A DNA stretch of 64,000 nucleotides from the IMG/VR virus record IMGVR_UViG_3300007625_000001. One strand, given 5' to 3'. The DNA is from an uncultured virus (IMG/VR IMGVR_UViG_3300007625_000001). Taxonomy: Duplodnaviria; Heunggongvirae; Uroviricota; Caudoviricetes. Below are positions 30,411 through 61,286 of this stretch, piece after piece. Position 1 is the first letter of the stretch. Every line of letters begins with the position of its first letter. Position numbers and translations under genes: made by a program. The notes below the pieces were generated by a model that worked only from the letters and a program-made list of their open reading frames with translations, made no database searches and had not been told where the DNA came from.

Positions 30411-30411
30411 C

Positions 30412-30418
30412 CTAAATA
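30412..30418 (+). promoter_or_regulatory. late promoter-like motif CTAAATA
   Basis: 5 nt upstream of the gp25 ATG. Confidence 0.6.
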
Positions 30419-30423
30419 AGAAT

Positions 30424-30816: not shown

Positions 30817-30817
30817 A

Positions 30818-32647: not shown

Positions 32648-32659
32648 TTAGTTAATAAA

Positions 32660-34981: not shown

Positions 34982-35005
34982 TAAATCACTCAATAGGAGA
35001 TTCTT

Positions 35006-35473
35006 ATGAATTTAAACGAACAAGATATAAAAGCAACAGGACATGTAGAAATTGTTGTTACCGATAAACAAGGCAAGATTAAAGAAACACGTAGTGTAAA
35101 GAATCTCGTTATGACTGTTGGTAAAGCATATATTGCACAACGTATGACTTCTGGTTCTACGCAGATTATGAACACAATGGCCATTGGTGTTGGAACTACA
35201 ACCCCAGCTGCTACTCAGACTGCTTTGTCATCTGAGGCTGGTCGTGTTGCGACTTCTTCTTTCTCTGCAGGTGGTACTTCTGGTAATGAAGTTACTGCGA
35301 CTGCTACATTTCCAGCTGGTACTGGTACTGGATCTATTACTGAAGCGGGAATTTTTAACCCATCTTCAGCTGGTGCAGCTGCTGGTACTATGATGTGTCG
35401 TACAACCTTCCCAGTTGTTAGTAAAGCTGCTGGTGATTCTATCGCCATCACATGGAAAGTTACTGTATCCTAA
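35006..35473 (+). CDS. virion structural protein
   Basis: KNLV...G, MAIG.G, ITEAGIFN, M.CRT.F.VV.K; AGGAG SD. Confidence 0.7.
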   Translation: MNLNEQDIKATGHVEIVVTDKQGKIKETRSVKNLVMTVGKAYIAQRMTSGSTQIMNTMAIGVGTTTPAATQTALSSEAGRVATSSFSAGGTSGNEVTATATFPAGTGTGSITEAGIFNPSSAGAAAGTMMCRTTFPVVSKAAGDSIAITWKVTVS

Positions 35474-35488
35474 ACTAGGAAAATCTAA

Positions 35489-38099: not shown

Positions 38100-41000
38100 A
38101 TGCTAGATTTTAATACCGAACCGTATAATGATGATTTCGATGAAGAAAAAAAATTCTATCGAATTTTGTTTCGCCCTTCTTTTGCTGTTCAGGCACGTGA
38201 ACTAACACAACTCCAGACAATCCTTCAGAATCAGATTACTCGCCATGGCGATAATATTTTCAAACAAGGTGCCATGGTTATACCTGGACAGGTATCTGCT
38301 GAAACTATTACTAATACTACAAAAGGTATTGATTATGTTAAACTACAGGCATTGTATAATGGTGTAGCCGTTGCTACATTTATTGATTCTTTGCAGGGTT
38401 TAGTTATCACAGGTTCAAGTGGATTAAAAGCACAGGTTATCAAGGCACAACGAGCAGAAGATACAGATCCAACAACTCTTTATGTTCGCTATTTAAATTC
38501 TGCAACTGATACTACGCAAAAAGTTTTTGCTGGTAATGAAGTTCTTCATACTGATACTGGTTTTTATTTTCAAGCACAAGCAAGTTCAGCTACAGGTAAA
38601 GGATCTTTGGCTACAATTGAGAGAGGTGTCTATTACATTAATGGACATTTTGTTCTTTGCGATACACAAGCAATTACACTAAACAAATATGACCCTTCTC
38701 CATCATATCGTGTTGGATTGAATGTATCAGAAAATATCACTACTGCAGAAGATGATGAAACTCTTTTAGATAATGCGCAGAATAGTTATAACTTTGCTGC
38801 TCCAGGTGCTCATCGTTACTTTATTGATTTAACACTATCTAAAAGATCTTTGGAGTCAACTGATGATCAGAACTTCGTAGAATTGATTCGTGTAACTGGT
38901 GGTGTTGTTAATACCATTGTTAAAGAAACTGCATATAATATAATCTATACTCAGATTCAAAATGAGATGGAAAGAAGAACATTCGATACTAATGGTGATT
39001 ACACTGTTAATGGATGGTCTGTAGATGTTCGTGAATCACGTAATAATAATCGTGGAGCATGGGCTCAAAATAGTGCATATCTAATTAATGATATTGTTAC
39101 ATATGGTGGTTATACATATACTGCTAAAAATAGTGCATCTTCAGTAACTACTCCTCCAACTCATAATTCTGGCTCAGCATATGATGGTGCAGGTAATAGC
39201 GGTGTTAACTGGCAATATGATGAAAATCCAGTATACAATCGTGGTATAAAATTAACTGGTAATGAAGGTGATCTTGCTATCGGTATTGATGCTGGAAGAG
39301 CATATGTTTCTGGAGCAGAACTTGAAAATCCTGCTACTGCATACATAACAGTACCAAAGGCTAGAGATTATGATCAAGCGATCGATTCTGTAATAACTCC
39401 AGTTGTTGGAAATTATGTTATTGTAACTAACTTAAATTATGTACCAACTATCGATACAGGTACGTTAGTTAATATCTATGACGGTATCACTGGATCTTCT
39501 AATCGAGGTAATGCGTCAGCAGTTTCTAATGCACAATTAATCGGAACTGCCCGTGCTCGTTTTATTGAGTGGCACAATATTCTTCCTTATGGATCTACTT
39601 CACAATATAAATTAGGTCTATGGGATATCCAGATGAAATCTGGATTTGATTTCAACAGAAATGCTAAGTCTTTCTATACTGTTGGCAGTGGTGTTGGGAC
39701 TTCTTTCTCAGCCGACATACAACCAGCATTAGTTAATTTAACTGGTTCAGTTACTGCAGTTGCAACTAATACTGTAACTGGTGTTGGGACTTCTTTCCTA
39801 ACAGATTTAAAAGTTGGTGATTACATCCTTATTAACGATTCTCTGTATAGAAGAATCTCAGCCATTACTTCTCAAAATTCTTTAACAGTTGATAGCTCAA
39901 TATCATCAGTGACTGGTGTAAAATATCAACTAGTAACAACTGTTCTACAAGAAGCCATAGCAAATAATTTAGTGTTCCCTCTTGCATATAGTTCTGTTCG
40001 TTCTATGAGAACATCTGGCAATAGTGGAGTTAACAATTTAAACTATACAGCTTATGTTAAGTTTAATAGTGTAAATACTGCTACTACTACTCTTGCATTA
40101 AATACATCAGGTAATTTTGCTTCTGCTGCAGATAATGATAGTTATCTTGTAGTTAAAGATTCTGATGGATCTGTTGTGAACATCACAGCATCTAATATTA
40201 GTGGTACTGGTACTTCTAACGTAAGTATCACTGTTCCGACATCTGGAACATATACTGTAATTGCTGCAGTTATTCGTTCTGGATCTGGTTTCGAAAAATC
40301 AAAAACACTAACACAAGTCACTGAAACATTCATTAGTGCTACTGCTGCTCAACAAGCATCAATCGTTCTAGATAAAGCAGATATATTCAGAATCATAAGC
40401 ATTAAGATGGCTCCAGGAACTGCCTTTGATAGCACTCCAGGATCTTATACTCAAGATATTTCAGAGAGATATTCTTTCGATAATGGTCAGCGTTTGACAC
40501 ATTATGATTATGGTAAATTAAATTTACTACCATCTTATACTCAACCATCTAATCCAGTTCAAGTTGTATATGAATACTTTGAACATGGTGCTGGTGACTA
40601 TTTTGATGTTAACTCTTATAGTGGTATTGATTACAAACAGATTCCTGCCAATCTACGAGACTCTATTGATTTTAGACCAAGAGTTGCTAATAAAACAACT
40701 GGTAGTGGAGTGAAGAACTTTACTAGCACAGGCTCTTCTATGACTTCTATACCAAAACGTGGTGAATATGTCAAAGCAGATTACAGTTACTATCTTGCTA
40801 GAAAAGATAAAATTATTTTAGAGCCAACTGGTAAATTAGTTGATATACAAGGCGTTCCATCTACTGTTCCTGGAGAACCAGTAACACCAGCACTTGGAAT
40901 GGTATTGTATAATCTATCTCTAGAACCATATACTTTTGGTACTGCATCAACTAATGTGAGCGTTTCAAAAGTTGATAATAAACGCTACACAATGCGTGAC

Positions 41001-44000
41001 ATCGGTAAGTTAGAAAATAGAATTAATAATTTAGAGTACTACACATCATTATCTCTGTTGGAATCAGAAACATCTAGTTTAAAAATTCCAGATAGTAATG
41101 GTATGGATAGAATGAAGAATGGTTTTGTTGTTGATAACTTCGGTAGCAGTGCTCTTGTAGCTGATCCAAAAACTTCTGATCTTAGCTGTTCTATTGATAT
41201 GGGGGCTAACTTACTGCGCCCAGCGCACACAATGCATAATGTAGATTTAATCGAACAAGCCTCTACTACTTCTGCAAGAACTAATGCTAATTATCAGCTA
41301 ACTGGTGATATTATAACTTTACCTTATACTACTACACCTCTGGTCACACAGGCATATGCGTCTAGACTAGAATATGTTAATCCATTTGCCATCTATACAT
41401 TCTTAGGAAGTGTTCAGATAACCCCAGCATCAGATGATTGGTTTGACACTGACAGAGTACCTGATCTTATTCAGCAGGTAGAGGGGAATTATAATTCTCT
41501 TAAGAATATGATAGATTTAAATAATGGTTGGCCAATTTATGGCGCATGGACTACAGATTGGTCTGGAACTCCTCAACATACTGTTACTACTAATAACTAC
41601 ATAAGTGGTAATCTTTTGATGGAAACAACTACTGATTCATGGTCTCAGACTGGTATTAAGTCAAGAAATGGTACTAAAACTTCTATAGTAGCAAAAACAG
41701 ATTATGAGTCAGTTGGTGACAGAACAGTATCAACTTCTATCGTTCCTTATGTACGATCACGTTTTGTATTAGTTCAATCTAAACAATTAAAGCCATCTAC
41801 TCGCTTTTATGCTTATTTTAATGAAGTTGATATAAATTCATATTGTACTCCAACGACTAAACTGGTGTATACTCCAACAGGTTCTACTGAAATTCTAAAA
41901 GCAGCAAACCATAAACTTTGGAATACTTCAACTAATGTCGGTGGATCTAGCACAGACATTAAAAGAAGAATCGGTACAGACGTACAAGTTTGTTTAACAC
42001 GTGGTGACGTAATAACAAAATCAGACAATTCTGCATCAGCAGTAGTTGTTGGTAAATATTTAATACATAATGATGATGGTACTACATCTTATGCGCTTGA
42101 TTTAGTTAATATTATCGGAACATTTAGTTCAGGTAATACATTTACTGGATCTATTAGTAATCAAACAGGAACTGTAGTTTCGGTAACAACTAATACTACA
42201 TTAACTACAAATCAATCAGGTGAAGTAAACTTCTTGTTTAATATACCAAATACTGAATCTGTTCGTTTCCGTACTGGTAAATCTACATTAAAACTAATGG
42301 ATTCTGCAACTTCTACAGGAAATTATACTTCTCGTGGAATCGGCACTTATGAAGCCACTGGAACACTTCAAACTGTTCAAGGTATAGTTAATGCTGTTAG
42401 AAATTCTACTATTGTTCAAGAACAGATTAATCCTCGTGCTGGTGATCCTAATACTTATGAGGTCGTTAATAGAAATGGTAGTTCTACTTCTACCAGAGTT
42501 ATTGCTGATTTAACACCAGCATGGACAGATCCACTTGCACAATCATTTTATGTAGAATCAAGAGGTGGTGCATTCTTAACAAGTATTGATTTATTCTTTG
42601 CAACTAAATCTGCAAATGTCCCAGTAACTGTACATATTCGTGAGATGGTCAACGGTAATCCGACACATCAGGTTCTTCCATTCAGTAGTGTAACTTTAAA
42701 TCCAGATTTGGTTAATGCTCCTGTTTCTGGAACTACTGCAGAAGCATCAGGATATACATCTGTTGCTCTGCCTGATGGTAATTCTTATGCAGACTATAAC
42801 ACAGCAACGAAATTCACATTCGAATCTCCTGTCTTTGTAGAAGACAGTAAAGAGTATGCATTTGTTATTCAGTCTGATTCAAATGATTACAGAGTTTGGA
42901 TTTCTAATATGGGTGATGTCATCCCAGGAACAAGTAGAACTATTTCTGAACAACCATATGCTGGTGTAATGTTCAAATCTCAGAATGCTTCTACATGGAC
43001 ACCAGATCAAAATCAAGATATTAAATTTACAATACATCGTGCTGTATTTGCTACAAATACGGTTGGTGCTATTGTTATGACGAATAATGTTTTACCTCAT
43101 GACCAATTGAAAAATAACCCAATCCAAACTGTTACTGGATCTAATGTTATTAGAATTTGGCATCCTAATCATGGTATGTCTTCTGGTTCTAGTGTTCAAC
43201 TTAGTGGATTGACTTCTAATATTAATGGAATCCCAGTCGGTGAAATCAATACGACTAAAGTTATTGCTAACGTAGATGCTCATTGTTATACAATAACTAC
43301 TAGCACAGTTGCTACTTCTACTGGTTATTCTGGTGGTAACTTACTAAAGGCTTCTAGAAATATTGCATATGATTTAATTAAACCAACTTTGCAGATGCAA
43401 ACTTTCGGTGAATCATTAGCAAAATTCTCTATGAAAACAACATCAGGAACATCACCTGATGGAGCACAAACATCATATGTTATAGATACTTCTTATTCTC
43501 CAGTTGTAGTTGATATTGACAACATTTGGGACAAAACAAGAGTTGTTGCTTCTGAGGTTAATGAAAACACTTATATGAGTGGAGAAAAATCTCTACAATT
43601 GTTGTGTCAGATTTCTACTACAAACAATGCAGTTTCTCCTGTTATTGATACTGCTCGTTCTAGTGCAGTATTAGTTTCAAATAAATTAAATTATCCTACT
43701 GAATCTAATACAAATGTGGCTTCTTTAGATACAAAAATAATGTTTGCTGGAGCAGCTGGAACTATTACTGGTGTTCCAAATAGTGGTGTGGCAGTAGCAG
43801 TTACTGGTGGATCATATAACTATGCTATTACTGGAACTCTATTAACTTTATCAGGCTCTCAATCCTTAACTCAAGGAACACAGTACTATTATGGAAATAA
43901 ACTTTACCTATGTACTGTAGGAGGAACTGCTAGTGTCAGCGCACCTACTCACACATATGGTGTAGCAACAAATGGCACAGCAACTTTACAGTGGGTTGGA

Positions 44001-44618
44001 AGTGCATCTTCTATAACTTCTACTAATGCGACTGTTAGAGGATTAATGGCTGGACTTGGAATTGGTAGATATCTAACTACTGGTGGTTCTTCAAACACAG
44101 CAAATAATAGTACATGGATAGTTACTGGCTATGGTGATAATGGTACTACTGGAACTGTTTATGTAGATTCTGTTTCTGGGGCTGTATTCACTGCAGAGAC
44201 AGTTACTTCTTCTGCAATTTATGTTGCAGTCAGAGAATTATTCTACGATGAAATCGCCCCACGTGGAGGAAGTTCGCTAAGTAAGTATGTAACAACACCT
44301 ATTAAATTTGCGAATTCTTCTAGTTTCGTGAGAATTAAACTTGGAGCTAATTGCCCGAATGAGGCTGATATCAAAGTTTACTATAAGACTTGTCTGGGTG
44401 ATAGCAAACAGTTAGATACTATTAGATATACGCTAGCCTCCGCTGATAATAATGGAATAATTAAAGTCGACAATGGAAACTATGCATTCTCTGATGTAGA
44501 CTATACTATGAACAATATGACACCATTCGATACTATTGCGATTAAAATCGTTATGCAGTCCACTAATAGTTCTGCTACTCCAATCATCAAAGACTTTAGG
44601 GTTATTGCCTGCGCATAA
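38100..44618 (+). CDS. very large baseplate/virion structural protein (DUF4815-like)
   Basis: PYNDDFD..K.FYRILFRP..AVQARELTQLQ, APGAHR, KRYTMRDIG.LE.RI..LEYYTSLSLLE, DPLAQSF, FKSQNASTWT. Confidence 0.85.
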   Translation: MLDFNTEPYNDDFDEEKKFYRILFRPSFAVQARELTQLQTILQNQITRHGDNIFKQGAMVIPGQVSAETITNTTKGIDYVKLQALYNGVAVATFIDSLQGLVITGSSGLKAQVIKAQRAEDTDPTTLYVRYLNSATDTTQKVFAGNEVLHTDTGFYFQAQASSATGKGSLATIERGVYYINGHFVLCDTQAITLNKYDPSPSYRVGLNVSENITTAEDDETLLDNAQNSYNFAAPGAHRYFIDLTLSKRSLESTDDQNFVELIRVTGGVVNTIVKETAYNIIYTQIQNEMERRTFDTNGDYTVNGWSVDVRESRNNNRGAWAQNSAYLINDIVTYGGYTYTAKNSASSVTTPPTHNSGSAYDGAGNSGVNWQYDENPVYNRGIKLTGNEGDLAIGIDAGRAYVSGAELENPATAYITVPKARDYDQAIDSVITPVVGNYVIVTNLNYVPTIDTGTLVNIYDGITGSSNRGNASAVSNAQLIGTARARFIEWHNILPYGSTSQYKLGLWDIQMKSGFDFNRNAKSFYTVGSGVGTSFSADIQPALVNLTGSVTAVATNTVTGVGTSFLTDLKVGDYILINDSLYRRISAITSQNSLTVDSSISSVTGVKYQLVTTVLQEAIANNLVFPLAYSSVRSMRTSGNSGVNNLNYTAYVKFNSVNTATTTLALNTSGNFASAADNDSYLVVKDSDGSVVNITASNISGTGTSNVSITVPTSGTYTVIAAVIRSGSGFEKSKTLTQVTETFISATAAQQASIVLDKADIFRIISIKMAPGTAFDSTPGSYTQDISERYSFDNGQRLTHYDYGKLNLLPSYTQPSNPVQVVYEYFEHGAGDYFDVNSYSGIDYKQIPANLRDSIDFRPRVANKTTGSGVKNFTSTGSSMTSIPKRGEYVKADYSYYLARKDKIILEPTGKLVDIQGVPSTVPGEPVTPALGMVLYNLSLEPYTFGTASTNVSVSKVDNKRYTMRDIGKLENRINNLEYYTSLSLLESETSSLKIPDSNGMDRMKNGFVVDNFGSSALVADPKTSDLSCSIDMGANLLRPAHTMHNVDLIEQASTTSARTNANYQLTGDIITLPYTTTPLVTQAYASRLEYVNPFAIYTFLGSVQITPASDDWFDTDRVPDLIQQVEGNYNSLKNMIDLNNGWPIYGAWTTDWSGTPQHTVTTNNYISGNLLMETTTDSWSQTGIKSRNGTKTSIVAKTDYESVGDRTVSTSIVPYVRSRFVLVQSKQLKPSTRFYAYFNEVDINSYCTPTTKLVYTPTGSTEILKAANHKLWNTSTNVGGSSTDIKRRIGTDVQVCLTRGDVITKSDNSASAVVVGKYLIHNDDGTTSYALDLVNIIGTFSSGNTFTGSISNQTGTVVSVTTNTTLTTNQSGEVNFLFNIPNTESVRFRTGKSTLKLMDSATSTGNYTSRGIGTYEATGTLQTVQGIVNAVRNSTIVQEQINPRAGDPNTYEVVNRNGSSTSTRVIADLTPAWTDPLAQSFYVESRGGAFLTSIDLFFATKSANVPVTVHIREMVNGNPTHQVLPFSSVTLNPDLVNAPVSGTTAEASGYTSVALPDGNSYADYNTATKFTFESPVFVEDSKEYAFVIQSDSNDYRVWISNMGDVIPGTSRTISEQPYAGVMFKSQNASTWTPDQNQDIKFTIHRAVFATNTVGAIVMTNNVLPHDQLKNNPIQTVTGSNVIRIWHPNHGMSSGSSVQLSGLTSNINGIPVGEINTTKVIANVDAHCYTITTSTVATSTGYSGGNLLKASRNIAYDLIKPTLQMQTFGESLAKFSMKTTSGTSPDGAQTSYVIDTSYSPVVVDIDNIWDKTRVVASEVNENTYMSGEKSLQLLCQISTTNNAVSPVIDTARSSAVLVSNKLNYPTESNTNVASLDTKIMFAGAAGTITGVPNSGVAVAVTGGSYNYAITGTLLTLSGSQSLTQGTQYYYGNKLYLCTVGGTASVSAPTHTYGVATNGTATLQWVGSASSITSTNATVRGLMAGLGIGRYLTTGGSSNTANNSTWIVTGYGDNGTTGTVYVDSVSGAVFTAETVTSSAIYVAVRELFYDEIAPRGGSSLSKYVTTPIKFANSSSFVRIKLGANCPNEADIKVYYKTCLGDSKQLDTIRYTLASADNNGIIKVDNGNYAFSDVDYTMNNMTPFDTIAIKIVMQSTNSSATPIIKDFRVIACA

Positions 44619-44619
44619 A

Positions 44620-44847
44620 ATGGATTATTTGAAAGTTCAAGGACATGATGGCTTAGTTAGAGATACCTCTACTGGAGCCATTATAAATACTAATAGAACA
44701 GAATATGAAACCTATATGAGCAGAAAAAAGATGGCTGAGCAGAGAGAGTTAGAGATTTCTCAACATACAGAAGACATAAATATATTGAAGAACGAACTGC
44801 AAGACATAAAATCTCTTATTTTACAGCTTTTGCACAAAAAAGATTGA
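44620..44847 (+). CDS. small coiled-coil virion-associated protein
   Basis: KVQGH..LVRD..TGAIIN, then heptad repeats; likely start ATG 44620. Confidence 0.75.
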   Translation: MDYLKVQGHDGLVRDTSTGAIINTNRTEYETYMSRKKMAEQRELEISQHTEDINILKNELQDIKSLILQLLHKKD

Positions 44848-44861
44848 CTAAGGAAACTTAA

Positions 44862-46067
44862 ATGCCAAATATTACATCCGCATCTATTACGCTAAGATCG
44901 ACTAAGGGTAGTCCTCTTACGAATACAGAAGTCGATAATAACTTTAATAACTTAAACACAGCCATTGCGACTGGTTTAACTGCAGCCAGCTATACCGCAG
45001 CTGATGTTCTAGCCAAACTAGTTACTGTTGATGGTGCTGGATCTGGTCTAGACGCTGACTTACTTGATGGACTGACTACTGCTTCAGCAAATACAGCATC
45101 TACTGTTGTTGTTCGTGACGCTTCTGGTAACTTCTCTGCTGGTACTATTACTGCAGCGTTAACTGGCACAGCGACTATCGCTTCCAGCTTGAATTATACA
45201 GTGGCTATCTCTGGTGGTGGTACTGGTGCTACTACTGCATCATCTGCTAGATCTAACTTAGGTTTGGCAATCGGCTCTGATGTTCAGGCTTATGATGGTG
45301 AACTAGCTGCGTTGGCTTCTACCACTTCTTCAGCAAATGCACTACCTTACTTTACTGGCGCAGGTACTGCTTCTACTACAACTCTTTCTGCATATGGTCG
45401 CACTCTTATCGATGATGCAGATGCATCTACTGCTCGTGGTACACTTGGTTTAACGATTGGTTCTGATGTTCAGGCTTATGCGGCAAACTTAGCTGCACTT
45501 GCAGGTGTTTCTGGTAATGGTCTTTATATTCGTACTGGTGCAGGTACTGCTGTTAATAGATCAATTGCAGCTGGTTCTGGTATTACTGTCTCCAATGGTG
45601 ATGGTGTTTCTGGTAATCCAACGATTAATGCAAACGTATTGTCTGTTCAGGGTAATACTGGTAACGTAATCGTTTCAGTTCCTGTTACTTCTGTTCAGGG
45701 TAATACTGGTGCGGTTATTGTTTCTAACATTGCTGGTAATGCTGCCACTGCCACCAACGCACATGCTGCACATACTTCTCAGTTCTCACACCATGCTCAG
45801 TATACTCCATGGTCTCAGGTTCAAGGTCGTCCACACCACTTATCTCAATTTGCCAACGACTTAGGTAACTATGGTGGTTGGGTTCCACATAATACTAAAC
45901 ATACTAACCCAGATGTCAGCTCTACCATTGGGCGAAATGCTGGTGGTGTAGGAAATTGTGGTAATATCGTATCTAGAAACGTATCGAGAATGCACTTAGA
46001 TACAAACCACCATTTTGATCCTCACCATCACCACAATAATTGTACCAATTGTAACTGTAACTGTTAA
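44862..46067 (+). CDS. tail-fibre-like protein with His-rich, Cys-terminated tip
   Basis: KGSPLT..EVD.NF start, [11 protein letters not shown], two [11 protein letters not shown] and two SVQGNTG repeats; ends [19 protein letters not shown]. Confidence 0.8.
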
Positions 46068-46084
46068 TAGGTAATAGGAAAACT

Positions 46085-47020
46085 ATGCAATATATAACTA
46101 AACTCCAACATCGTGCTAGATATTTGGGATACCCAAATGCAGTATTACCAAAACATTTCGATGATTCGGTAGGTTTAACTGGTATCACTGATCCTGTAGA
46201 ATACGATAGAATATCAGCTGCTGCTGACCCAACTATTTTCGAACAGATGGAATTTGATTTTAAGTGGGATTTAAATTTAACTGGTAATATTTTAAAAGCA
46301 AAATTTATTAATGTTACCGAAAATAATAGAATTATTAATAATTTTTCTATTGATATGTCATATTTAAGTAATGCAGACGCATGTACTCTTTGGTATATTA
46401 AAGATGATATTATTTTAAGTAATATATCCAAAGTACTTGATGCAGATGCAGAAGAACTAACTATAGTAGATACAGATCTAGTTAATTCTTTCGCAAATAC
46501 TTTACCAACCAAAAATTTTAATATTTATGGAACCCATGGTTTAATAGTATTTTATGTGACTAAAGATAATCCAACTCCTGCTGATATTATCACTTGTATT
46601 ATTAGACCTATAGTTAGCACAGATACGGACTATAATACAGTTTTACCAGAAATGTTAAGAAATAATATCGAAATTAAACCACTAGGTGATTATAGAGTTA
46701 CTGTTACAGGTAATTTGACTAAGCATCCTGCTGATCCTACTACATTACTGATTATTGATACACTTTTACCAGAAATAACAGTGACATCTTCAACAGTATC
46801 TGGTGATATTGTTACAGTTAATTTTACAACAGATTCGAAAATCAATAACATTTATCTGGTCCAATCTGAAGGTTATTTACCAAAATTAAAAATCCCAGTT
46901 ACTAATGGAACTGGTTCTTTTAAAGTAGTCACAACTGGTATGGATGCAGGTGATACTATTAAAGTTAAAATGGGTTTTAAATATTGGGTTAACAGAACTG
47001 AGTTCACTAAAATATTATAA
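46085..47020 (+). CDS. hypothetical protein (beta-rich C-terminus); possible fibre partner
   Basis: ORF track; AGGA SD; no recognised motif. Confidence 0.7.
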   Translation: MQYITKLQHRARYLGYPNAVLPKHFDDSVGLTGITDPVEYDRISAAADPTIFEQMEFDFKWDLNLTGNILKAKFINVTENNRIINNFSIDMSYLSNADACTLWYIKDDIILSNISKVLDADAEELTIVDTDLVNSFANTLPTKNFNIYGTHGLIVFYVTKDNPTPADIITCIIRPIVSTDTDYNTVLPEMLRNNIEIKPLGDYRVTVTGNLTKHPADPTTLLIIDTLLPEITVTSSTVSGDIVTVNFTTDSKINNIYLVQSEGYLPKLKIPVTNGTGSFKVVTTGMDAGDTIKVKMGFKYWVNRTEFTKIL

Positions 47021-47037
47021 AATTTATATTTTGAACA

Positions 47038-47070
47038 TATCCTATCGGAGATAAATACTCTGATAGGATA
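47038..47070 (+). promoter_or_regulatory. 13-bp inverted repeat whose loop is the late promoter motif ATAAATA
   Basis: TATCCTATCGGAG-ATAAATA-CTCTGATAGGATA (one G.U pair). Confidence 0.65.
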
Positions 47071-47089
47071 ATTTATTTTGAGGGATAGT

Positions 47090-48481
47090 ATGGCAACTTT
47101 TGAAATTTCAGCATGGAGTCCAGCAGAAAAGGTTACTAAGAAATTATTTTACAATAGTTCTCTTAGCACATTAAAGTGGGAAGATGGTTCCAATGTTATT
47201 GCAGATGTTAGAACACAACCTGATGTTGTTTCTCCTGCAAAGATTGAACATGGTAAAAAAGATTTAAAAACTGTTAAGATTCAACTAGGTCTTTCTTGTA
47301 ACTTTGAATGTGATTATTGCAATCAAAGATTCGTACCACATGCAGATGAAACTAATCCAAACGATGTAGATCCATTTGTATTGAATATGGACTCATGGTA
47401 TGAAGGTGGGTCTGATGGATTTGGTAAAGATACAAACTTCGAGTTTTGGGGTGGTGAACCATTTGTTTATTGGAAAACAATGAAGCCTCTTGCAGAAGCA
47501 CTTAATAAAAAATACCCAAATGCTCGTATGTCAGTAATTACAAATGGTAGTTTATTAGACATAGAAAAAAATGAGTGGTTAGAACGATATAATTTTGGTG
47601 TGGCGGTTTCACATGATGGTCCAGGACAACCAGTTCGTGGACCAGATCCTTTAGATGATCCAAAATCTAAAGAAGGTATTATAGATCTTTATAAAAGACT
47701 TGCACCAAAGCGTATGTTTAGTTTTAATTCTATGATTAACTCTAAGAATACTAGTCGTGCTGAGATTGAAAAATTCTTCTTCAATTTTGTTGATACTGAA
47801 ATCGGTGAGAAATATAAACAGTTCTTAACAATAGGCGAAGGTGCTTTCGTTGATGCTTATGATGAGGGTGGATTAGCAAATTCTTTAGTTGATGGTGAAG
47901 AAGATATTTCTTATAGAAATCAAGCATTAGAAGAATTGCGTGCTGGTAAGGTAACAAGATTTGATGTTATCGGGCAGAAAGTCGGTGGGTTTATTGACTC
48001 ATTAGCGAATGGTGTTAGAATCGAATCACTACCCCAAAAGTGTGGTATGGATAAATCTAATTCTATTGCTCTTGACTTAAATGGTAATGTTTTAACCTGC
48101 CAAAATGTAAGTCCAGTTTCTACAAATCCCGCAGGTATATCTCATAAACTTGGACATATATCTGATCTTTCTTCAACTAGATTAGATTCAGCTACTCATT
48201 GGAGTGATAGAAAAGAATGCCCAAACTGCCCAGTAGTACATATTTGCAAGGGTGCTTGTATGTTTCTTTCTGGTCCACTATGGGATGCTTCTTGTGATAA
48301 TGCATTTAGTGATAATATCATCCCATTTTGTATCGCAATTGAAGAGATAACAGGATGTATCCCTGAGTATATCGAGGGTCCATTAAGAGAAGATCGTAAA
48401 GATATTTTCTGGTGGGTTAAGGGTAAACCAGAAAAGGTTAGAAAACCTAAAAAGATTATACCGATTGTGATGGCATCATGA
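47090..48481 (+). CDS. radical SAM enzyme with SPASM domain
   Basis: CNFECDYC (CxxxCxxC), FWGGEP, ITNG, SHDG; KCG...GNVLTC and CPNCPVVHICKGAC...C auxiliary-cluster motif; GAGGG SD before ATG 47090. Confidence 0.92.
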   Translation: MATFEISAWSPAEKVTKKLFYNSSLSTLKWEDGSNVIADVRTQPDVVSPAKIEHGKKDLKTVKIQLGLSCNFECDYCNQRFVPHADETNPNDVDPFVLNMDSWYEGGSDGFGKDTNFEFWGGEPFVYWKTMKPLAEALNKKYPNARMSVITNGSLLDIEKNEWLERYNFGVAVSHDGPGQPVRGPDPLDDPKSKEGIIDLYKRLAPKRMFSFNSMINSKNTSRAEIEKFFFNFVDTEIGEKYKQFLTIGEGAFVDAYDEGGLANSLVDGEEDISYRNQALEELRAGKVTRFDVIGQKVGGFIDSLANGVRIESLPQKCGMDKSNSIALDLNGNVLTCQNVSPVSTNPAGISHKLGHISDLSSTRLDSATHWSDRKECPNCPVVHICKGACMFLSGPLWDASCDNAFSDNIIPFCIAIEEITGCIPEYIEGPLREDRKDIFWWVKGKPEKVRKPKKIIPIVMAS

Positions 48482-48792
48482 GTAGTTTCTTTAAAGGATA
48501 CGTATTAGAGATTAATCAATTCCCTAGAATTGTAGGAAACATTGGAACTATCGAACACTATACAGTCAAAGAAGTATTTGAATTTGATAGTGATACTAAA
48601 GAATATGGGTACAGAGATAGCCTAATTCCACTACAATCTGTTATAAATAAAGATGAGATTGACCTAAATACAATTAAAGATCTTATAAATAATAAGGTGG
48701 CTTTCTTGAGAAGAACCTTAAATTTTCAGAACCAAACACAAGTCTGGTCTTTTGATACCAGCAAATTAGGAGAACTAAAAAATGACAGTTAA
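48478..48792 (+). CDS. hypothetical protein (104 aa)
   Basis: ATGA-coupled to the radical SAM gene and overlapping the next gene. Confidence 0.65.
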   Translation: MSSFFKGYVLEINQFPRIVGNIGTIEHYTVKEVFEFDSDTKEYGYRDSLIPLQSVINKDEIDLNTIKDLINNKVAFLRRTLNFQNQTQVWSFDTSKLGELKNDS

Positions 48793-49729
48793 AAATGTAA
48801 AATGGGTTATCGCTCATGAGCCTATTGGTTTATTTTTGAAGGTAGCCGAAGCATTTTCCAAAGAAGTTAACGAAAGAACTAATGGGAAATTTAATGTTGA
48901 GATTCTCTCATTGACTGAGTATTCTCAAAAGTACAATTTCGGTAAACAACTAACAAAACGATCTATGATGGATTTAGTTGGTTCTGGACAAGTTGAGATG
49001 GGTCACATCTATACAACTTGGCTCGCAGATATCAATCCAGATCTTAATGTTTTAGATTTACCATTCTTGTTTAGAGATCACGATCATGCTGATGCTATTC
49101 TTGATGGTCCAATCGGTGCTGATTTGTTAGCTGGTGTTGAGAAGAACTCTCAGATCAAAGCAATGGCATTTACATATTCTGGTGGATATCGTGTGGTTCC
49201 TGCTAATTTTAAAGCAGATACGATTGAATCTTGGAAAGGTAAAAAAGTTAGAATTAGTTCTAGCCCAGTTGCCCAAGCAACTTTCGAAACACTCGGTGCA
49301 ATTGCAAATCCTAATATCGAATTAGAACAAATGAATGAACAAGCCGATCGTGGAAACATCGATGCAGGTGAATCAACTTATGTTCGCATTTTCCCACTAC
49401 AGCAAAACAAATCTTTCAAGTATGTTAATGATACTGCACACAGTTTGTTCTTGACTTCTATTATTGTCAATGAGGCTTTCTTCAATCAGTTTGACGATGA
49501 AACTAAACAGATCATGTCTGAAGCAGCATTTAATGCAGCAAAGGCAGAACGTAAAGAATCTGTTGCAGATATTCCAAATATTTTAGATCAATGTAAAGCT
49601 GAAAAAGTTGAAGTTATCTCTATGTCTAAATCTGAACAGAAAAAGATGCAAGATCTATTGACCCCTCTCCATGATAGATTTGAGGCTTCCTTTAGTGATG
49701 GATTAGTCAAGAGCATTAAGTCTCATTAA
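48782..49729 (+). CDS. TRAP-type solute-binding protein (DctP family) without signal peptide
   Basis: F..EV..RT.G...V, LDLPFLFRD.DH, G.KVR (conserved Arg), GA.....E, H.......VN..F...D; AGGAG SD. Confidence 0.85.
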   Translation: MTVKNVKWVIAHEPIGLFLKVAEAFSKEVNERTNGKFNVEILSLTEYSQKYNFGKQLTKRSMMDLVGSGQVEMGHIYTTWLADINPDLNVLDLPFLFRDHDHADAILDGPIGADLLAGVEKNSQIKAMAFTYSGGYRVVPANFKADTIESWKGKKVRISSSPVAQATFETLGAIANPNIELEQMNEQADRGNIDAGESTYVRIFPLQQNKSFKYVNDTAHSLFLTSIIVNEAFFNQFDDETKQIMSEAAFNAAKAERKESVADIPNILDQCKAEKVEVISMSKSEQKKMQDLLTPLHDRFEASFSDGLVKSIKSH

Positions 49730-49750
49730 TCTAAACTAAATATATTATAC

Positions 49751-49775
49751 AGGGGATGTTTAGCATCCCCTTTTT
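49751..49775 (+). terminator. stem-loop with U-tract, immediately after a CTAAATA motif
   Basis: AGGGGATG-TTTAG-CATCCCCT-TTTT; CTAAATA at 49736-49742. Confidence 0.6.
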
Positions 49776-49780
49776 ATTTT

Positions 49781-50836
49781 ATGGAAAATATAATGAAACC
49801 TAGAATTTTATATTATAACAAAAAACAAGCACCTTTCTTAATTAATAGAGATGCTTCTTCAATGTCACCATTTTTATCTAAAACGTATACATATAAAATT
49901 TTTAATTCATATGAGACACTTGGATTAAATAAACATAATATGGTATATGATAGATCTGGTTCTGTACCACATTATTTAAATATTGCAGAAGATGCCCACC
50001 CAATACCAGAGGTGGGTATTTCTTTTAATAAATCATTTTATCAAGCATGTGAAGAACGTGCAAAGCACCTCCTAAGTCTTAATAAAGTAGTACATGTACT
50101 TTGGTCTGGTGGAATTGATAGCACTTTTGTTTTATTCATGTTAAAGAAATTCTCCAACGATCCCGATCAGGTTAGAGTTTGGGGTACATTAAATTCTATC
50201 TTAGAATCTGGTGATATGTTTGATAGAAGATTAAAGAATGAATTTCCTTACACTATCCTAGAACCAACAGATAATGAGTTTTCCTTTAATGTAAATGAAT
50301 GTATTTTTGTCAGTGGGATGGGTGGGAATCAGTTATTTGGACCAACAGATGATATGTTCGCCACTGGTGGAACTGCTATGTTCCACCACACTCTTGGTAC
50401 TCCAGAAACTATATACGAATCTTACGAGAATAACATAGACCCTAAACTATTAGAATTTCTGGATCCAATGATAAAGAATTCTTATAGGAAAATTGAAACA
50501 GTCGCCGATCTAAGATGGTATTGTATTTTTAATCTAGACTGGTACACTGGCTTATATGAACATAGAACAATGCTTCAGATAGAAAAGACTAAAAAGATGC
50601 ATGCGTTTTTTGATTCTGACGATCTACAACGCTGGGCTATGACTACTAAAGAACCATTCACCAAAGTTCGTGGGAATGCCAATACACATCGTTGGCAAAT
50701 GAGGCAAATTCTGTCCGAAGAATTCGGAGAACGAGATTATGCTTTAAACAAATCAAAGAAAATATCAAACCTAAACGTCCAACGTCCTCAGTGGCTATTT
50801 TTACTAGACGATTTCCATAATGTCCTGATCGACTAA
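49781..50836 (+). CDS. asparagine-synthetase-like N-type ATP pyrophosphatase (no glutaminase domain)
   Basis: PP-loop VLWSGGIDST and FVSGMGGNQLFG (cf. AsnB SGEGxDELFG). Confidence 0.7.
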   Translation: MENIMKPRILYYNKKQAPFLINRDASSMSPFLSKTYTYKIFNSYETLGLNKHNMVYDRSGSVPHYLNIAEDAHPIPEVGISFNKSFYQACEERAKHLLSLNKVVHVLWSGGIDSTFVLFMLKKFSNDPDQVRVWGTLNSILESGDMFDRRLKNEFPYTILEPTDNEFSFNVNECIFVSGMGGNQLFGPTDDMFATGGTAMFHHTLGTPETIYESYENNIDPKLLEFLDPMIKNSYRKIETVADLRWYCIFNLDWYTGLYEHRTMLQIEKTKKMHAFFDSDDLQRWAMTTKEPFTKVRGNANTHRWQMRQILSEEFGERDYALNKSKKISNLNVQRPQWLFLLDDFHNVLID

Positions 50837-50861
50837 GTTGCAAATACAAAAATCCCTCGCT

Positions 50862-50869
50862 TATAAATA
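50862..50869 (+). promoter_or_regulatory. canonical T4 late promoter TATAAATA
   Basis: Intergenic, upstream of the fibre operon. Confidence 0.7.
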
Positions 50870-50898
50870 AAGAGGTAAAAGCAATTTAGGATCAGAAA

Positions 50899-51234
50899 AT
50901 GGCGACTGTTAGTAATCTATTCGTTGACGCTGGGGCTAACTACAGCAATATAATTACTGTATCCGCATCCAATGGTCAAGCACTCGATTTGACTGGATAT
51001 ACTGTGGCTTCTCAAATGAGAAAGTCATATCAGTCCAGCACATCCTATAATTTCACATCAAGTATATACTTAGCAGCTTCTGGTAAGGTTAGACTTCAAT
51101 TAACAGATGTACAATCTGCTAGTATTCCAGCTGGACGCTGGCTTTATGATGTAGAGATAACTTCTCCATCTGGTACAAAAACCAGAGTAGTCGAGGGAGT
51201 TGTCACAGTTAACCCACAAATTACACAGATTTAA
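50899..51234 (+). CDS. virion structural protein (Ig-like fibre adaptor)
   Basis: DLTGYT..SQMRKSY, G.V.L.LT, GR..YDVEI, RVVEG.V.V.P. Confidence 0.75.
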   Translation: MATVSNLFVDAGANYSNIITVSASNGQALDLTGYTVASQMRKSYQSSTSYNFTSSIYLAASGKVRLQLTDVQSASIPAGRWLYDVEITSPSGTKTRVVEGVVTVNPQITQI

Positions 51235-51502: not shown

Positions 51503-54178
51503 ATGGCATCAATAATTAGAATAAAACGCTCATCGGTTTCAGGGAATCCAGCTACACTGGGTGCTGGTGAATTAGCGTATTCAGCACTTAATGGGGCTGG
51601 TGGTAATCGTCTATACATTGGTATGGGCACAGAGACCTCAGGTAATGCTGCTAACCACTTAGTAATCGGTGGTACTTACTACACTGGTTTAATTGACGCA
51701 TCAGTTGCTGGCACATTAACTACTAGTGCATCCTCAATTCCAGTTCTTTCTGCAACTGGTACGATCGATACTTGGAAAGTTGGTAATACTCAATTAACTG
51801 GTAACACATTATCATCTACTGACACCAATGGTAACATTAACCTTACACCAAATGGTACTGGTAAATTAGTTCTTAATAATCCGTACATTAATGGTACGAC
51901 TGATACTCTTGCTGAGTATATCTTTGATACAGTTGGTGGAGCAGTAACTGCTGGTACAGGTATTACTGTAACACCAAGTGATGTTGGTAATACTACTACC
52001 ATTTCAATAACTAATACTGCGGTAACTCCTGGAACTTATGGCTCTGCTACTTCGATTCCAACATTCACTGTTAATCAACAAGGTCAATTAACTGCTGCAG
52101 GTAGTGCTTCTTTAGCAACTACTTTAAATATCGCTGGTGATACTGGTACGTCAGCATTTGCTCTACTAACAGACACCATGACTTTTGTTGGTGGTACTGG
52201 TATTACTTCTGTTGTCGCAAAAGTTGGTGCTGCTACTAGTGTAACTTTTGATATTGATTCAACTGTTACTACTTTAACTGGTACTCAGACACTTACTAAT
52301 AAGACTTTAACTAGCCCAATAATCAATGGTGCAACCATTGGTGCTACAGGTGCTACATTTAATGGTTCTACTTCTGGTACAATTACTGTACTTGCATCAG
52401 CTGTTGCTGGAACAAATTCATTAACTCTACCAGCTGCAACTGATACTTTAGTCGGTAAAGCAACAACTGATACACTTACTAACAAGTCTATCAACTTAGC
52501 AAACAATACACTAACTACTACTTCTGCTCAGTTAGCAACTGCTATCTCTGATGAGACTGGTACTGGTGTTGTTGTATTCTCTAATACTCCAACTCTTGTT
52601 ACTCCTATTCTTGGTGTTGCTTCTGCTACTTCTATTAATAAAGTAGCAATTACTGCTCCTGCCACTGGTTCTACTTTAACTATTGCTGATGGTAAAACCT
52701 TTACTGCAAGCAATACTTTAACTCTAACTGGTACTGATACTTCATCTATTGCTTTCGGTGCTGGTGGTACTGTTGCTTATGTAGCAAACAAACTAAGCGT
52801 ATTTGCTGCCACTACTTCTGCTGAACTTGCTGGCGTTATCTCTGATGAGACTGGTACTGGTGTTCTAGTATTCTCTAACAGCCCAACTCTAGTTACTCCA
52901 ACTCTTGGTGCTGCTTTAGCAACTAGCATTACTGCCACTTCTGGCAATATGACTGTTAATGCTGCAGCTGGTAATAACAGTGTAAACTTAGTTGCAACTG
53001 GTACTGGTACTGTTGACGTTGCCAACAAGCGTATTACTTCTGTTGCTGAGCCTACTCAGTCTAGCGATGCTGCTACTAAGAACTACGTTGATGCTGTTAA
53101 GACTGGTCTAAAAGTTAAAGATGCTGTTCGTGCTGCAACTACTGCAAACCTAGCTGCAACATATGCTAACGGATCTTCTGGTGTTGGTGCTACATTAACT
53201 AACTCTGGATCTCAAGCTGCCTTTACAATTGATTCGATCGTATTAACTGCTGGACAACGAGTTCTTGTTAAAGATCAATCAACTGCCTTCCAAAATGGTA
53301 TCTATACAGTAACAACTGTTGGTACTGTTTCTACAAACTGGGTTCTTACTCGTGCTATTGACAATGATAGTAATGTCACTGTTCTAGAAGTTGAAGGTGG
53401 AGATTTCTGTTTCGTTCAAGAAGGTACAGTAAACGCTGATAATGGTTTCGTTGTAACTACTAATGGATCTATTACAATTGGTACTACTGGAATTGACTAT
53501 GTTCAATTCTCTGGTGCTGGACAAGTTATCGCTGGTGATGGTTTAACTAAGACTGGCAATACTCTAAACGCAGTTGGTACTAATAACCGTATCTCTATTT
53601 CTGCTGATGCGATTGACATCTCTTCAAGTTATGTTGGTCAAGCAACTATTACTACTCTTGGTACTATCGCAACTGGTACTTGGCAAGGTACTATCGTTGG
53701 TTCAACTTATGGTGGTACTGGTGTTAATAATGGATCTAGCACTATTACACTTGGTGGTAGTTTAAGCACTATCGGTGCGTTTACTACTGCGTTAACTGCA
53801 ACTGCTAATACTACATTAACACTACCTGTTACTGGCACTCTTGCTACACTAGCTGGTACTGAAACATTTACTAACAAAACTTTAACTGCTCCAGTTATCG
53901 CAACTATTGTTAATACTGGTACTTTAACACTACCAACTTCAACTGATACTTTAGTTGGTCGTGCCACTACTGATACACTTACTAATAAAACAATCACTGG
54001 TGCGATAATCACTACTGGTAGTATTAACAATACTCCAATCGGTGCCACTACTACAAACACTGGTGCGTTCACTACATTAAATGCAAGTGGTACTATTACT
54101 GCTCAAGGTAATATTACTGGTGCTGGTGCTGGTACTTCTACTCTCGATGGATTCAATATCGATGGTGGTACGTACTAA
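51503..54178 (+). CDS. long tail fibre protein
   Basis: IRIKRS...L..GELAY start; Thr/Gly-rich; TLTNKT repeats; PT..SDAATKNYVD; ends IDGGTY. Confidence 0.85.
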   Translation: MASIIRIKRSSVSGNPATLGAGELAYSALNGAGGNRLYIGMGTETSGNAANHLVIGGTYYTGLIDASVAGTLTTSASSIPVLSATGTIDTWKVGNTQLTGNTLSSTDTNGNINLTPNGTGKLVLNNPYINGTTDTLAEYIFDTVGGAVTAGTGITVTPSDVGNTTTISITNTAVTPGTYGSATSIPTFTVNQQGQLTAAGSASLATTLNIAGDTGTSAFALLTDTMTFVGGTGITSVVAKVGAATSVTFDIDSTVTTLTGTQTLTNKTLTSPIINGATIGATGATFNGSTSGTITVLASAVAGTNSLTLPAATDTLVGKATTDTLTNKSINLANNTLTTTSAQLATAISDETGTGVVVFSNTPTLVTPILGVASATSINKVAITAPATGSTLTIADGKTFTASNTLTLTGTDTSSIAFGAGGTVAYVANKLSVFAATTSAELAGVISDETGTGVLVFSNSPTLVTPTLGAALATSITATSGNMTVNAAAGNNSVNLVATGTGTVDVANKRITSVAEPTQSSDAATKNYVDAVKTGLKVKDAVRAATTANLAATYANGSSGVGATLTNSGSQAAFTIDSIVLTAGQRVLVKDQSTAFQNGIYTVTTVGTVSTNWVLTRAIDNDSNVTVLEVEGGDFCFVQEGTVNADNGFVVTTNGSITIGTTGIDYVQFSGAGQVIAGDGLTKTGNTLNAVGTNNRISISADAIDISSSYVGQATITTLGTIATGTWQGTIVGSTYGGTGVNNGSSTITLGGSLSTIGAFTTALTATANTTLTLPVTGTLATLAGTETFTNKTLTAPVIATIVNTGTLTLPTSTDTLVGRATTDTLTNKTITGAIITTGSINNTPIGATTTNTGAFTTLNASGTITAQGNITGAGAGTSTLDGFNIDGGTY

Positions 54179-61285: not shown

Positions 61286-61286
61286 A

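Follow-up and report, generated by a model that had tools for sequence, protein, structure and literature searches.

Radical SAM/SPASM enzymes paired with Asn-Cys-tailed fibre tips in an uncultured T4-like phage and its relatives: a candidate system for fibre-tip modification

The uncultured virus IMGVR_UViG_3300007625_000001 (Caudoviricetes) is a freshwater T4-like myovirus, and the 64,000 nt of its DNA that were analysed are referred to here as the window. At positions 44862-50836 the window carries six open reading frames (ORFs), all on the plus strand, which encode in order a tail fibre, a 311-aa protein, a radical S-adenosylmethionine (SAM) enzyme with a SPASM domain, a 104-aa protein, a DctP-type solute-binding protein and a stand-alone ATP pyrophosphatase with an AsnB-like fold (Table 1). 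An original prediction, made from this DNA, had recognised six co-oriented genes in a structural region, the first encoding a fibre that ends in NNCTNCNCNC; the coordinates are confirmed, as is the setting, a T4-like structural module. The same prediction held that the phage matures its fibre tip in the manner of a ribosomally synthesised and post-translationally modified peptide (RiPP). Of this idea, the pairing of the enzyme with the (Asn-Cys)n tail of the fibre now stands from three independent directions; the thioether or metal-chelating chemistry is a matter of likelihood and is weighed below.

Relatives of the enzyme were confirmed by an alignment-based scan, 501 in viral contigs and at least 174 in bacterial genomes, the latter mostly in Burkholderiales and alphaproteobacterial assemblies and in prophage-like contexts. 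Eighty loci were kept from each source, and de-replication at 90% gave 112 clusters, 99 of which extend at least 3.5 kb upstream. An ORF was scored as tailed if its last 45 residues, or those before a Hint junction, held at least three xC repeats, at least two of them N/D-C. By this rule, 86 of the 99 enzyme loci have a tailed ORF upstream on the same strand (46 of 56 at 70% clustering), and the rule returned none of 604 downstream and none of 1026 opposite-strand control ORFs. Five of the 13 misses are motif variants, which brings the count to 91 of 99: the repeat is broken by one residue in L015 and L016, there are two repeats in L001, a variant Hint junction in L085 and Ala-Cys runs in L070.

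The search was also made from the tail. DNA encoding NCNCNCNC followed by a stop was found at 53 viral loci, 44 of them eligible (the ORF reaches 80 aa or more, closes with a true stop and is followed by 3 kb or more of sequence), and the enzyme lies 8-3620 nt downstream in all 44. The nine remaining loci are non-ORFs (10-37 codons or no stop) or contig ends; the 45 loci positive for the radical SAM gene, one of which is ineligible, form 24 clusters at 90%. From the side of the fibre family, 80 loci with homologues of the fibre body yielded 41 in which the ORF is complete and 3 kb or more follow it. All 24 that have a tail also have the enzyme, whether the tail is on the fibre itself (16 of 16) or on a separate downstream tip ORF (8 of 8); none of the 17 untailed loci has it, two of them holding a match of 26% coverage to another radical SAM protein. 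The link thus holds from the enzyme, from the tail and from the fibre family, and the co-occurrence that the original prediction had singled out for checking is found: the enzyme clade is not independent of Cys-tailed proteins. The pairing spans myovirus-type and siphovirus-type contexts, with variable gene order.

The composition of the tails was computed over 104 unique examples comprising 452 xC positions. The residue preceding each cysteine is Asn in 333 cases, Asp in 42, Ala in 42 and another residue in 35. Individual tails contain two to nine xC repeats, with a mode of four; 61 of the 104 end exactly at the C-terminus of the protein, 14 have one extra residue and four are followed by a Hint domain. 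The tails are borne by 17 unrelated sequence families, on proteins of 92-752 aa.

The window fibre, which matches phrog_697 (E 6e-18) and phrog_24210 (E 2e-13), consists of a conserved N-terminal body of about 300 aa and a tip module of about 75 aa that is His-rich immediately ahead of the tail. In an alignment of 29 fibres, the first 300 or so residues are conserved, the last 100 or so are hypervariable in both sequence and length, and C399, N400 and C401 are invariant in all 29. The sole conserved spot in the hypervariable tip is the GNCGN motif of the alignment consensus, about 35 residues ahead of the tail, which may be a further modification or contact site. Two other loci, L281 and L261, encode small tip proteins of 92-167 aa separately, as three tandem paralogues behind a fibre-stem gene (positions 6243-7414 and 5953-6865, respectively). 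In each paralogue the N-terminus is conserved, and an LSQFxNxLGNYG motif leads into a variable middle and then the tail; the paralogues may be alternative receptor-binding tips. Because the motif of the window fibre is shared with these separate proteins, we take motif, variable region and (NC)n tail together as a portable tip module, fused to the body in the window and free-standing elsewhere. The stem gene of L281 and L261 has an end of its own that resembles an intramolecular chaperone domain.

In L055, the IMG/VR copy of phage JWF, a Hint domain (PF05203, 47.5 bits; cut-off 32.1) begins directly after the repeat, with profile position 1 on residue 308, the Cys of CFPAGT; self-cleavage would therefore again leave the repeat C-terminal. 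Hint matches in L127, L156 and L085 (E 1e-6 to 1e-4) do not reach the cut-off. Upstream of the repeat and the Hint domain, L055 (3853-5301) and L127 (3745-5304) encode a Shufflon_N constant region (PF04917; 29.9 and 28.8 bits, respectively; cut-off 27.5). A protein of 131-133 aa, about one-third Asn plus Cys, lies directly before the enzyme in L253 (6126-10231) and L283 (6134-10163); in both, the gene of the 311-aa family is 3' of the enzyme, not 5', and is followed by a protein of about 400 aa whose N-terminal GxGxxG marks it as a possible flavoenzyme. In L052, another of the 13 loci missed by the tail rule, a collagen-like ORF immediately 3' of the enzyme (6253-6762) bears the repeat, (xC)9, at the N-terminal end rather than as a C-terminal tail.

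The description of the third gene product as a radical SAM protein with SPASM cysteines is borne out in full. The cysteines of the CNFECDYC motif, C74, C78 and C81, are invariant in 55 of 55 aligned homologues, as are all seven SPASM cysteines (C322, C341, C381, C384, C390, C394 and C406). The SPASM model TIGR04085 matches residues 322-396 above its cut-off (34.0 bits; cut-off 27), and Pfam PF04055 (Radical_SAM) falls marginally under its own (29.2 bits; cut-off 29.5). The CX3CX2C motif and the seven-Cys SPASM domain place the protein in the radical SAM superfamily and the SPASM subgroup, within which, on the family comparisons, it is a distinct clade, that of phrog_1802 (E 5e-62). Thirty-eight maturase families match far below cut-off, including PapB, nif11, QhpD, anaerobic sulfatase-maturating enzyme (anSME), DynA, CcpM, SCIFF and TIGR04463. 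The scores against curated equivalog models all lie beneath the cut-offs: 50.6 bits against 340 for PapB (NF047865), 29.7 against 425 for CteB/SCIFF (TIGR03974), 42.3 against 453 for QhpD (TIGR03906), 28.2 against 525 for the CrpC type (TIGR04463) and 40.8 against 349 for anSME (TIGR03942). A profile search of the PDB returned 8vpo (E 3e-16), CteB 5wgg (E 5e-10) and anSME 4k37 (E 2e-8). The best matches by family and structure are thus thioether-forming peptide or protein maturases together with anSME, and the anSME matches are full-length (residues 70-394 for TIGR03942, 72-387 for 4k37).

Translation probably starts at ATG 47090 rather than TTG 47078, because the homologues begin MAxFxI. Full-length homologues of 41-47% identity occur in the cultured Ralstonia phage RSP15 and Achromobacter phages JWF and 2-1, where the enzyme gene is in each case 3' of a fibre gene; the RSP15 fibre ends in an N-C-Q-C run, and the JWF and 2-1 fibres have N/D-C runs immediately before a Hint domain. 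Complex prediction with the enzyme (55-row alignment), fibre residues 340-401 (28 rows), three 4Fe-4S clusters and SAM gave scores of 0.21 and 0.02, against a mark of 0.32, a result that counts neither for nor against binding.

The architecture of the cassette was examined by clustering the ORFs of 164 loci, frequencies being taken over 96 eligible de-replicated loci. The order is a tailed fibre or tip protein, then a member of the 311-aa family or of an unrelated 240-aa family, zero to five accessory genes, and the enzyme. The 311-aa family is found in 115 of the 164 loci, upstream of the enzyme in 126 of 126 occurrences, and in 74 of the 96 eligible loci; the 240-aa family (gp029-type) takes its place in nine of the 96. 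The 240-aa family was considered as a distant relative of the 311-aa family, but hhalign gave a probability of 0.06%, so that the two are unrelated or their kinship is undetectable. Judged by gene neighbourhood, the conserved core is three genes, encoding the tailed fibre or tip protein, the 311-aa (or 240-aa) protein and the enzyme. The six-gene system envisaged originally is upheld to this extent; the remaining trio of 104-aa, DctP and AsnB-fold genes is lineage-specific and also occurs in loci that have no enzyme. The slot between fibre and enzyme contains 2-oxoglutarate (2OG)-Fe(II) oxygenases (PF13759, PF13640) or the 205-aa fam4 in 41 of the 96 loci. A weak PKHD-hydroxylase hint (E 0.2) makes fam4 tentatively oxygenase-like, and a variable slot of tailoring-type enzymes would be as in RiPP clusters.

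The 311-aa protein of the window has no match in Pfam or PHROG. Its model (pLDDT, predicted local distance difference test, 90.8) has a variable N-terminal domain and a conserved C-terminal domain. The conserved last 84 residues form an immunoglobulin (Ig)-like sandwich that superimposes on intimin/invasin Ig domains with Z scores of 8.1-8.9 and a root-mean-square deviation of 2.5 over 78-80 residues; for residues 1-227, Foldseek gave nothing convincing (best E 6e-4, TM 0.2). The suggestion that this protein might have the fold of a RiPP recognition element (RRE) or PqqD is not sustained, the conserved domain being Ig-like instead, and a Pfam scan at E 0.01 or better found no PqqD match on any protein of the cluster.

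Table 1. Features of the fibre cluster in the 64,000-nt window
Feature	Position	Strand	Basis
Tail fibre, 401 aa	44862..46067	+	PHROG tail-fibre/structural families
Start motif of the portable tip module, aa 327-339	45840..45878	+	LSQFxNxLGNYG-type motif
GNCGN motif with further Cys	45951-45965	+	alignment consensus
C-terminal tail NNCTNCNCNC, presumed modification site	46035..46064	+	overlapping N-x-x-C motifs
311-aa core partner (fam1)	46085..47020	+	family conservation, predicted fold
Ig-like C-terminal domain of 311-aa protein, aa 228-311	46766-47017	+	structural model matches
Radical SAM/SPASM enzyme, 467 aa from TTG	47078..48481	+	phrog_1802, TIGR04085
CX3CX2C of the enzyme	47297-47320	+	CNFECDYC, residues 74-81
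Seven SPASM Cys of the enzyme	within 48041-48295	+	alignment
104-aa protein, no known family; first gene of accessory trio	48478..48792	+	
Leaderless (cytoplasmic) TRAP-type DctP solute-binding protein	48782..49729	+	PF03480
Stand-alone AsnB-fold PP-loop ATP pyrophosphatase, 351 aa	49781..50836	+	predicted fold
SGGIDS PP-loop	50105-50122	+	residues 109-114 of AsnB-fold protein

In the accessory trio, the 104-aa ORF shares 4 nt with the end of the enzyme gene and 11 nt with the beginning of the DctP gene, in agreement with the coupling noted earlier. The 104-aa protein has no family match in profile scans; its gene always precedes that of DctP, including in enzyme-less loci such as L202. The DctP protein matches PF03480 (156 bits, cut-off 23.4; E 1.7e-45) and NF037995 (116 bits, cut-off 50), and is below the cut-off of TIGR00787 (121.5 bits against 175). 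The PF03480 match starts at residue 20 (profile position 13), and solved binding proteins in their mature form align from residue 23 onwards (PDB 4pdh, E 2e-24). Because these alignments begin in the first strand of the mature domain, there is no room for a signal peptide, and DctP can be inferred to be leaderless, as the original prediction had it, and cytoplasmic. No transporter subunits were found among the 50 window ORFs compared with PHROGs, a collection that may not hold DctQM.

The predicted structure of the 351-aa protein (pLDDT 93.5; Foldseek top match 8sue, 2.3e-4) gives Z scores of 12.9 with beta-lactam synthetase, 12.8 with TsnB9, 12.6 with human asparagine synthetase and 11.7 with carbapenam synthetase, the lowest family member scoring 10.4. 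These alignments span 188-260 residues, and other PP-loop enzymes reach a Z score of 10.2 or less. Alignment of the model to the full enzymes begins at about their residue 127-180, the glutaminase domain being absent. In the PP-loop, S109, G110, G111, D113 and S114 are invariant in 44 sequences. By sequence, the protein had no PDB match at E 10 or better, and a profile matched only the P-loop region; Pfam PF00733 (Asn_synthase) scored 12.7 bits against a cut-off of 21, and matched 13 of the 44 family members (best E 6.6e-4). The earlier term 'AsnB-like' is therefore apt for the predicted fold only: Z scores of 10.4-12.9 bear it out, and in sequence nothing matches but the SGGIDS loop.

PHROG scans, which took in 50 window ORFs, and Pfam scans locate baseplate genes at 23835-38062, a VrlC/DUF4815 giant of 2172 aa at 38100-44618, ahead of the fibre cluster, and neck and sheath-stabiliser genes at 60326-62949. 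From this gene content, the cluster is part of a T4-like myovirus structural module. A paper on pelagimyophages describes a 'host-recognition cluster' downstream of VrlC and, in the sections available, mentions radical SAM cassettes there and leaves them uninterpreted (PMC7029224); given its position relative to VrlC, our cluster therefore lies within a host-recognition cluster as those sections define it (PMC7029224). Between the VrlC giant and the fibre is a protein of about 75 aa with a coiled-coil-like C-terminus (44620-44847; ORF listed from TTG 44536), whose position is kept in 38 loci of the same phage group; it may be a fibre-attachment or assembly factor. Directly after the cassette, at 50899-51234, comes a 111-aa protein matching phrog_1084 and phrog_3304 ('L-shaped tail fiber protein assembly', E 4e-20), the gene for which is directly 3' of the enzyme in relatives without the DctP trio. 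A second fibre-like protein of 891 aa follows at 51503-54178. Four genes of 2OG-Fe(II) oxygenase type (phrog_61, phrog_81) lie far from the fibre cluster, at 2704-3294, 6967-7566, 9871-10335 and 15068-15703.

A megablast search of phage records with the cluster gave no match. Contigs from RNA libraries of three freshwater studies cover, at 99-100% identity, the five genes from the fibre to DctP, and barely extend into the region of the AsnB-fold gene (49748-50883). These matches are consistent with expression in nature; DNA carry-over may also account for them. The late-promoter motifs that had been reported ahead of the fibre, enzyme, DctP and ATPase genes do not hold up. The exact motif TATAAATA is present only at 44682 and 48684, and the sites at 44776, 47051, 48664 and 49736 are variants with one or two mismatches. 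Across the window there are four exact sites where shuffled sequences lead one to expect 8.0, and sites with one mismatch, 95 on the plus strand and 13 of them in 44500-51000, show no enrichment.

On balance we favour a reading in which the (Asn-Cys)n tail, at the extreme C-terminus of the receptor-binding fibre tip, is a post-translational target of the radical SAM/SPASM enzyme, which probably forms thioethers on it. That the tail is the substrate appears very likely from the linkage. If it is, thioethers seem the more probable chemistry by analogy with known enzymes. SPASM enzymes with Cys-bearing substrates mostly form thioethers. The enzyme NxxcB joins Cys to the Asn beta-carbon within an NxxC motif and, in the account available, tolerates Ala, Gln and Asp as acceptors (PMC9389541). 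The Asn, Asp and Ala residues of the tails match the acceptor range given in that account, and (NC)n is a series of overlapping NxxC motifs. A further SPASM enzyme, CrpC, is described as installing ranthionine on CrpA, a large Cys-rich protein (PMC13692751).

According to this proposal, modification would take place in the cytoplasm of the infected cell, before or during fibre assembly, and would produce a ladder of thioethers of ranthionine or sactionine type between Cys sulfur and a carbon of Asn (or Asp or Ala). Such a ladder, either within a chain or among three chains, would staple the small hypervariable tip and be immune to oxidation and reduction. The tail would be a portable, leaderless tag, carried by unrelated fibre bodies or by small tip proteins and exposed by Hint in some prophages. 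The 311-aa Ig-domain protein would be a non-enzymatic, fibre-associated partner (a chaperone, adaptor or distal subunit), and the trio an optional module for tailoring or supply. In an elaborated version, which we think rather unlikely, the enzyme would recognise the tail whatever the fibre tip that carries it, and the three parallel tails of a trimer would be joined by an inter-chain thioether ladder into a redox-proof unit, decorated by 2OG oxygenases, flavoenzymes or a DctP-fed AsnB-fold ligase that caps the C-terminal carboxylate.

A number of observations weigh against the proposed modification. The evidence is throughout that of gene neighbourhood and family resemblance, and the counts are incompletely independent even after de-replication, many of the loci being related. 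As no equivalog cut-off is reached, the chemistry is not readable from family membership, and among the few full-length matches is anSME, which oxidises its substrate and makes no crosslinks. Only about 70 residues precede the CX3CX2C motif, no RRE was found and the 311-aa partner is Ig-like. We know of no solved precedent for rings between adjacent residues, or for overlapping NxxC rings, in a simple repeat. Moreover, seven of the 99 enzyme loci are without a convincing tail (L083, L103, L034, L158, L162, L143 and L163). In L083, five extra enzyme genes place the fibre beyond the fetched stretch. The bacterial loci L143 and L163 have enzyme relatives of about 39% identity beside ABC-transporter-like genes, with no fibre or tail, and these may be cellular RiPP-type relatives of the phage clade; nothing convincing emerged from a search for small Cys-repeat ORFs near the enzyme in L143, L163, L158, L034 and L103.

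The enzyme might act on the same tail by other means, converting Cys to formylglycine in the manner of anSME, epimerising residues, forming C-C or C-O crosslinks, or linking a Cys thiol to the C-terminal carboxylate. The full-length match to anSME, which likewise acts on a protein without leader or RRE, speaks for such an alternative, and the preference for a free C-terminus, evident in the 61 terminal tails and in the exposure by Hint elsewhere, fits terminal-carboxylate chemistry. However, the anSME motif, which we take to be C/S-x-P/A-x-R, is absent from all 104 tails, the SPASM families with Cys-rich substrates are mostly thioether-forming, and the alternation with Asn, Asp and Ala suits thioether acceptors; we consider other chemistry unlikely. 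Alternatively, the tail could bind metal or an Fe-S cluster on the axis of the trimeric fibre tip, with the enzyme linked to it indirectly through cluster handling or redox protection. Alternate cysteines of a strand face one side, so that three chains could provide stacked Cys3 sites; the window tip is His-rich just ahead of the tail; and the trio of L202 adjoins IscU/IscA genes. Fibre tips are indeed stabilised by metal in T4 gp37 and gp12, and lambda gpL has an Fe-S cluster. A metal site would nevertheless need no dedicated radical SAM enzyme, yet the linkage is complete both from the tail and among the fibre homologues, and the Asn, Asp and Ala positions are conserved as well as the Cys, which a pure thiolate site would not require. 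This explanation is accordingly very improbable in our estimation. Finally, the enzyme might have a different target (a molecule of the host surface, a small molecule or some other protein of the virion), the tail being a docking or packaging tag, or the two genes travelling as a joint mobile cassette. The seven loci with no clear tail would fit, but the pairing extends across the unrelated tail-bearing families, both kinds of phage context and variable gene order, and untailed fibre homologues lack the enzyme. Simple co-inheritance would not give this pattern, and we hold such explanations to be most improbable.

The trio poses a separate question, namely whether it acts on the fibre at all or works on its own in the cytoplasm, binding and activating an organic acid for another purpose, and merely adjoins the cassette in the lineage of the window. 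It is an accessory set, found in 17-19 of the 96 loci, all in or near T4-like VrlC-type contexts. Close relatives (L013, L014, L028, L036, L044, L046, L049-L051) keep the fibre, 311-aa and enzyme genes without it, and L191, L195, L199-L203 and L210 have it with neither the enzyme nor a clear tail, though the five trio-only contig records, in which no enzyme match was found, are fragments of 0-11% completeness. In L202 (5768-8732), it follows ribonucleotide reductase and glutaredoxin-like genes and directly precedes NifU_N (E 3e-54) and Fe-S_biosyn/IscA (E 4e-16) genes. A scan starting from the PP-loop protein confirmed 494 relatives, with 78 loci kept in 55 clusters; among those of 31% identity or less, only one locus in seven has the enzyme. 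At 43% identity or more, on the other hand, both the enzyme and a tail lie within 7 kb in 23 of the 26 eligible clusters, and DctP is present in 24; the DctP gene is flanked by the 104-aa and AsnB-fold genes in the window, as in 24 of 26 related loci. Trio genes, moreover, occupy the slot between the 311-aa gene and the enzyme, used by 2OG oxygenases elsewhere, in L024 and L066 (all three genes) and L061 (the 104-aa and PP-loop genes only); a distant T4-like group (enzyme identity 37-39%) retains DctP and the PP-loop gene beside very long tails; and enzymes of the AsnB family adenylate carboxylates, which is what the tails end in. Since the trio is absent from some relatives and present without the enzyme elsewhere, we regard it as a separable module, often but not always attached to the fibre cassette. 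We put its independence at even chances, and its action on the fibre somewhat below that.

With regard to the thioether proposal, the nearest known systems are cellular. NxxcB and its substrate NxxcA, from a streptococcal RiPP cluster, resemble the phage pair, as far as they are described, in the use of a radical SAM enzyme with auxiliary Fe-S clusters and in crosslinking at NxxC, of which the phage tails are overlapping copies (PMC9389541). NxxcA is a short leader-bearing peptide of a cellular cluster, whereas the phage substrates would be virion proteins with the motif repeated two to nine times at the C-terminus; the phage cassette has no leader, protease or exporter and shows no sequence-level membership of the family. 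Closer still is CrpC/CrpA of Methanococcus voltae (TIGR04463), where, in the published account available, a SPASM enzyme forms ranthionine in the C-terminal Cys-repeat of a full-size protein encoded by a neighbouring gene, as proposed here (PMC13692751). CrpC/CrpA differs in being archaeal and cellular, with a 17-residue C-x-x-Q/D repeat, a predicted RRE and a leader-like N-terminus (PMC13692751). The words 'phage' and 'viral' do not occur in that paper (PMC13692751). More generally, the norm for ranthipeptides and sactipeptides, a short leader-bearing precursor and an RRE, does not apply to substrates that are structural proteins of 92-752 aa.

Among the top family matches of the enzyme, PapB (E 1.6e-13) and QhpD (E 3.7e-11) cover only the radical SAM core, at residues 44-183 or thereabouts. 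QhpD and PapB are SPASM enzymes that form thioethers from Cys to Asp or Glu in QhpC and PapA, QhpD acting on a protein subunit; their substrates and biological contexts differ from those of the phage enzyme. The likeness to anSME includes the SPASM domain and action on a folded protein, but anSME oxidises a single Cys or Ser to formylglycine in its sulfatase motif. Virion reinforcement has precedents in the isopeptide crosslinks of the HK97 capsid, the metal ions of T4 gp37 and gp12 and the cluster of lambda gpL. These have in common with the present proposal a covalent or cofactor-based stabilisation, in several cases at the host-binding end of the tail, but they are autocatalytic or depend on simple cofactor binding, with no radical SAM enzyme or portable repeat tag. 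The 351-aa protein shares its fold and SGGxDS with AsnB, beta-lactam synthetase, carbapenam synthetase and TsnB9 (Z 10.4-12.9), and differs from them in having no N-terminal glutaminase domain and in scoring below the Pfam cut-off. Lasso-peptide cyclases belong to the synthetase domains of the AsnB family.

A search of the full-text literature, covering main texts and few subscription journals, found no description of a radical SAM-modified phage fibre or of an Asn-Cys fibre tail. This agrees with the original view that no system of this kind has been characterised, CrpC/CrpA being the closest in the published account available (PMC13692751). As a SPASM maturase with a protein substrate is already known, what is new is the phage-fibre setting and the substrate tag.

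If our reading is true, a virus uses radical chemistry of the natural-product (RiPP) type on one of its structural proteins, and does so where the host is recognised; the system is also widespread, given the several hundred enzyme relatives in viral contigs and bacterial genomes. Covalent crosslinks are predicted in the fibre tips and could be sought by cryo-EM and mass spectrometry; the cultured Achromobacter phages JWF and 2-1 carry the module and so put the prediction within reach of bench tests. A SPASM enzyme that reads a short C-terminal repeat on full-size proteins, independently of a leader, would open leader-independent substrate recognition to direct testing and also offer a potential genetically encoded tag for protein stapling. 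Were the inter-chain ladder to be correct, this would be a RiPP-like pathway whose product forms part of a virus particle, with consequences for host range. For the phages themselves, such fibres would need their own maturase to fold or function, and swaps of receptor-binding proteins, or their expression without the enzyme, could fail.

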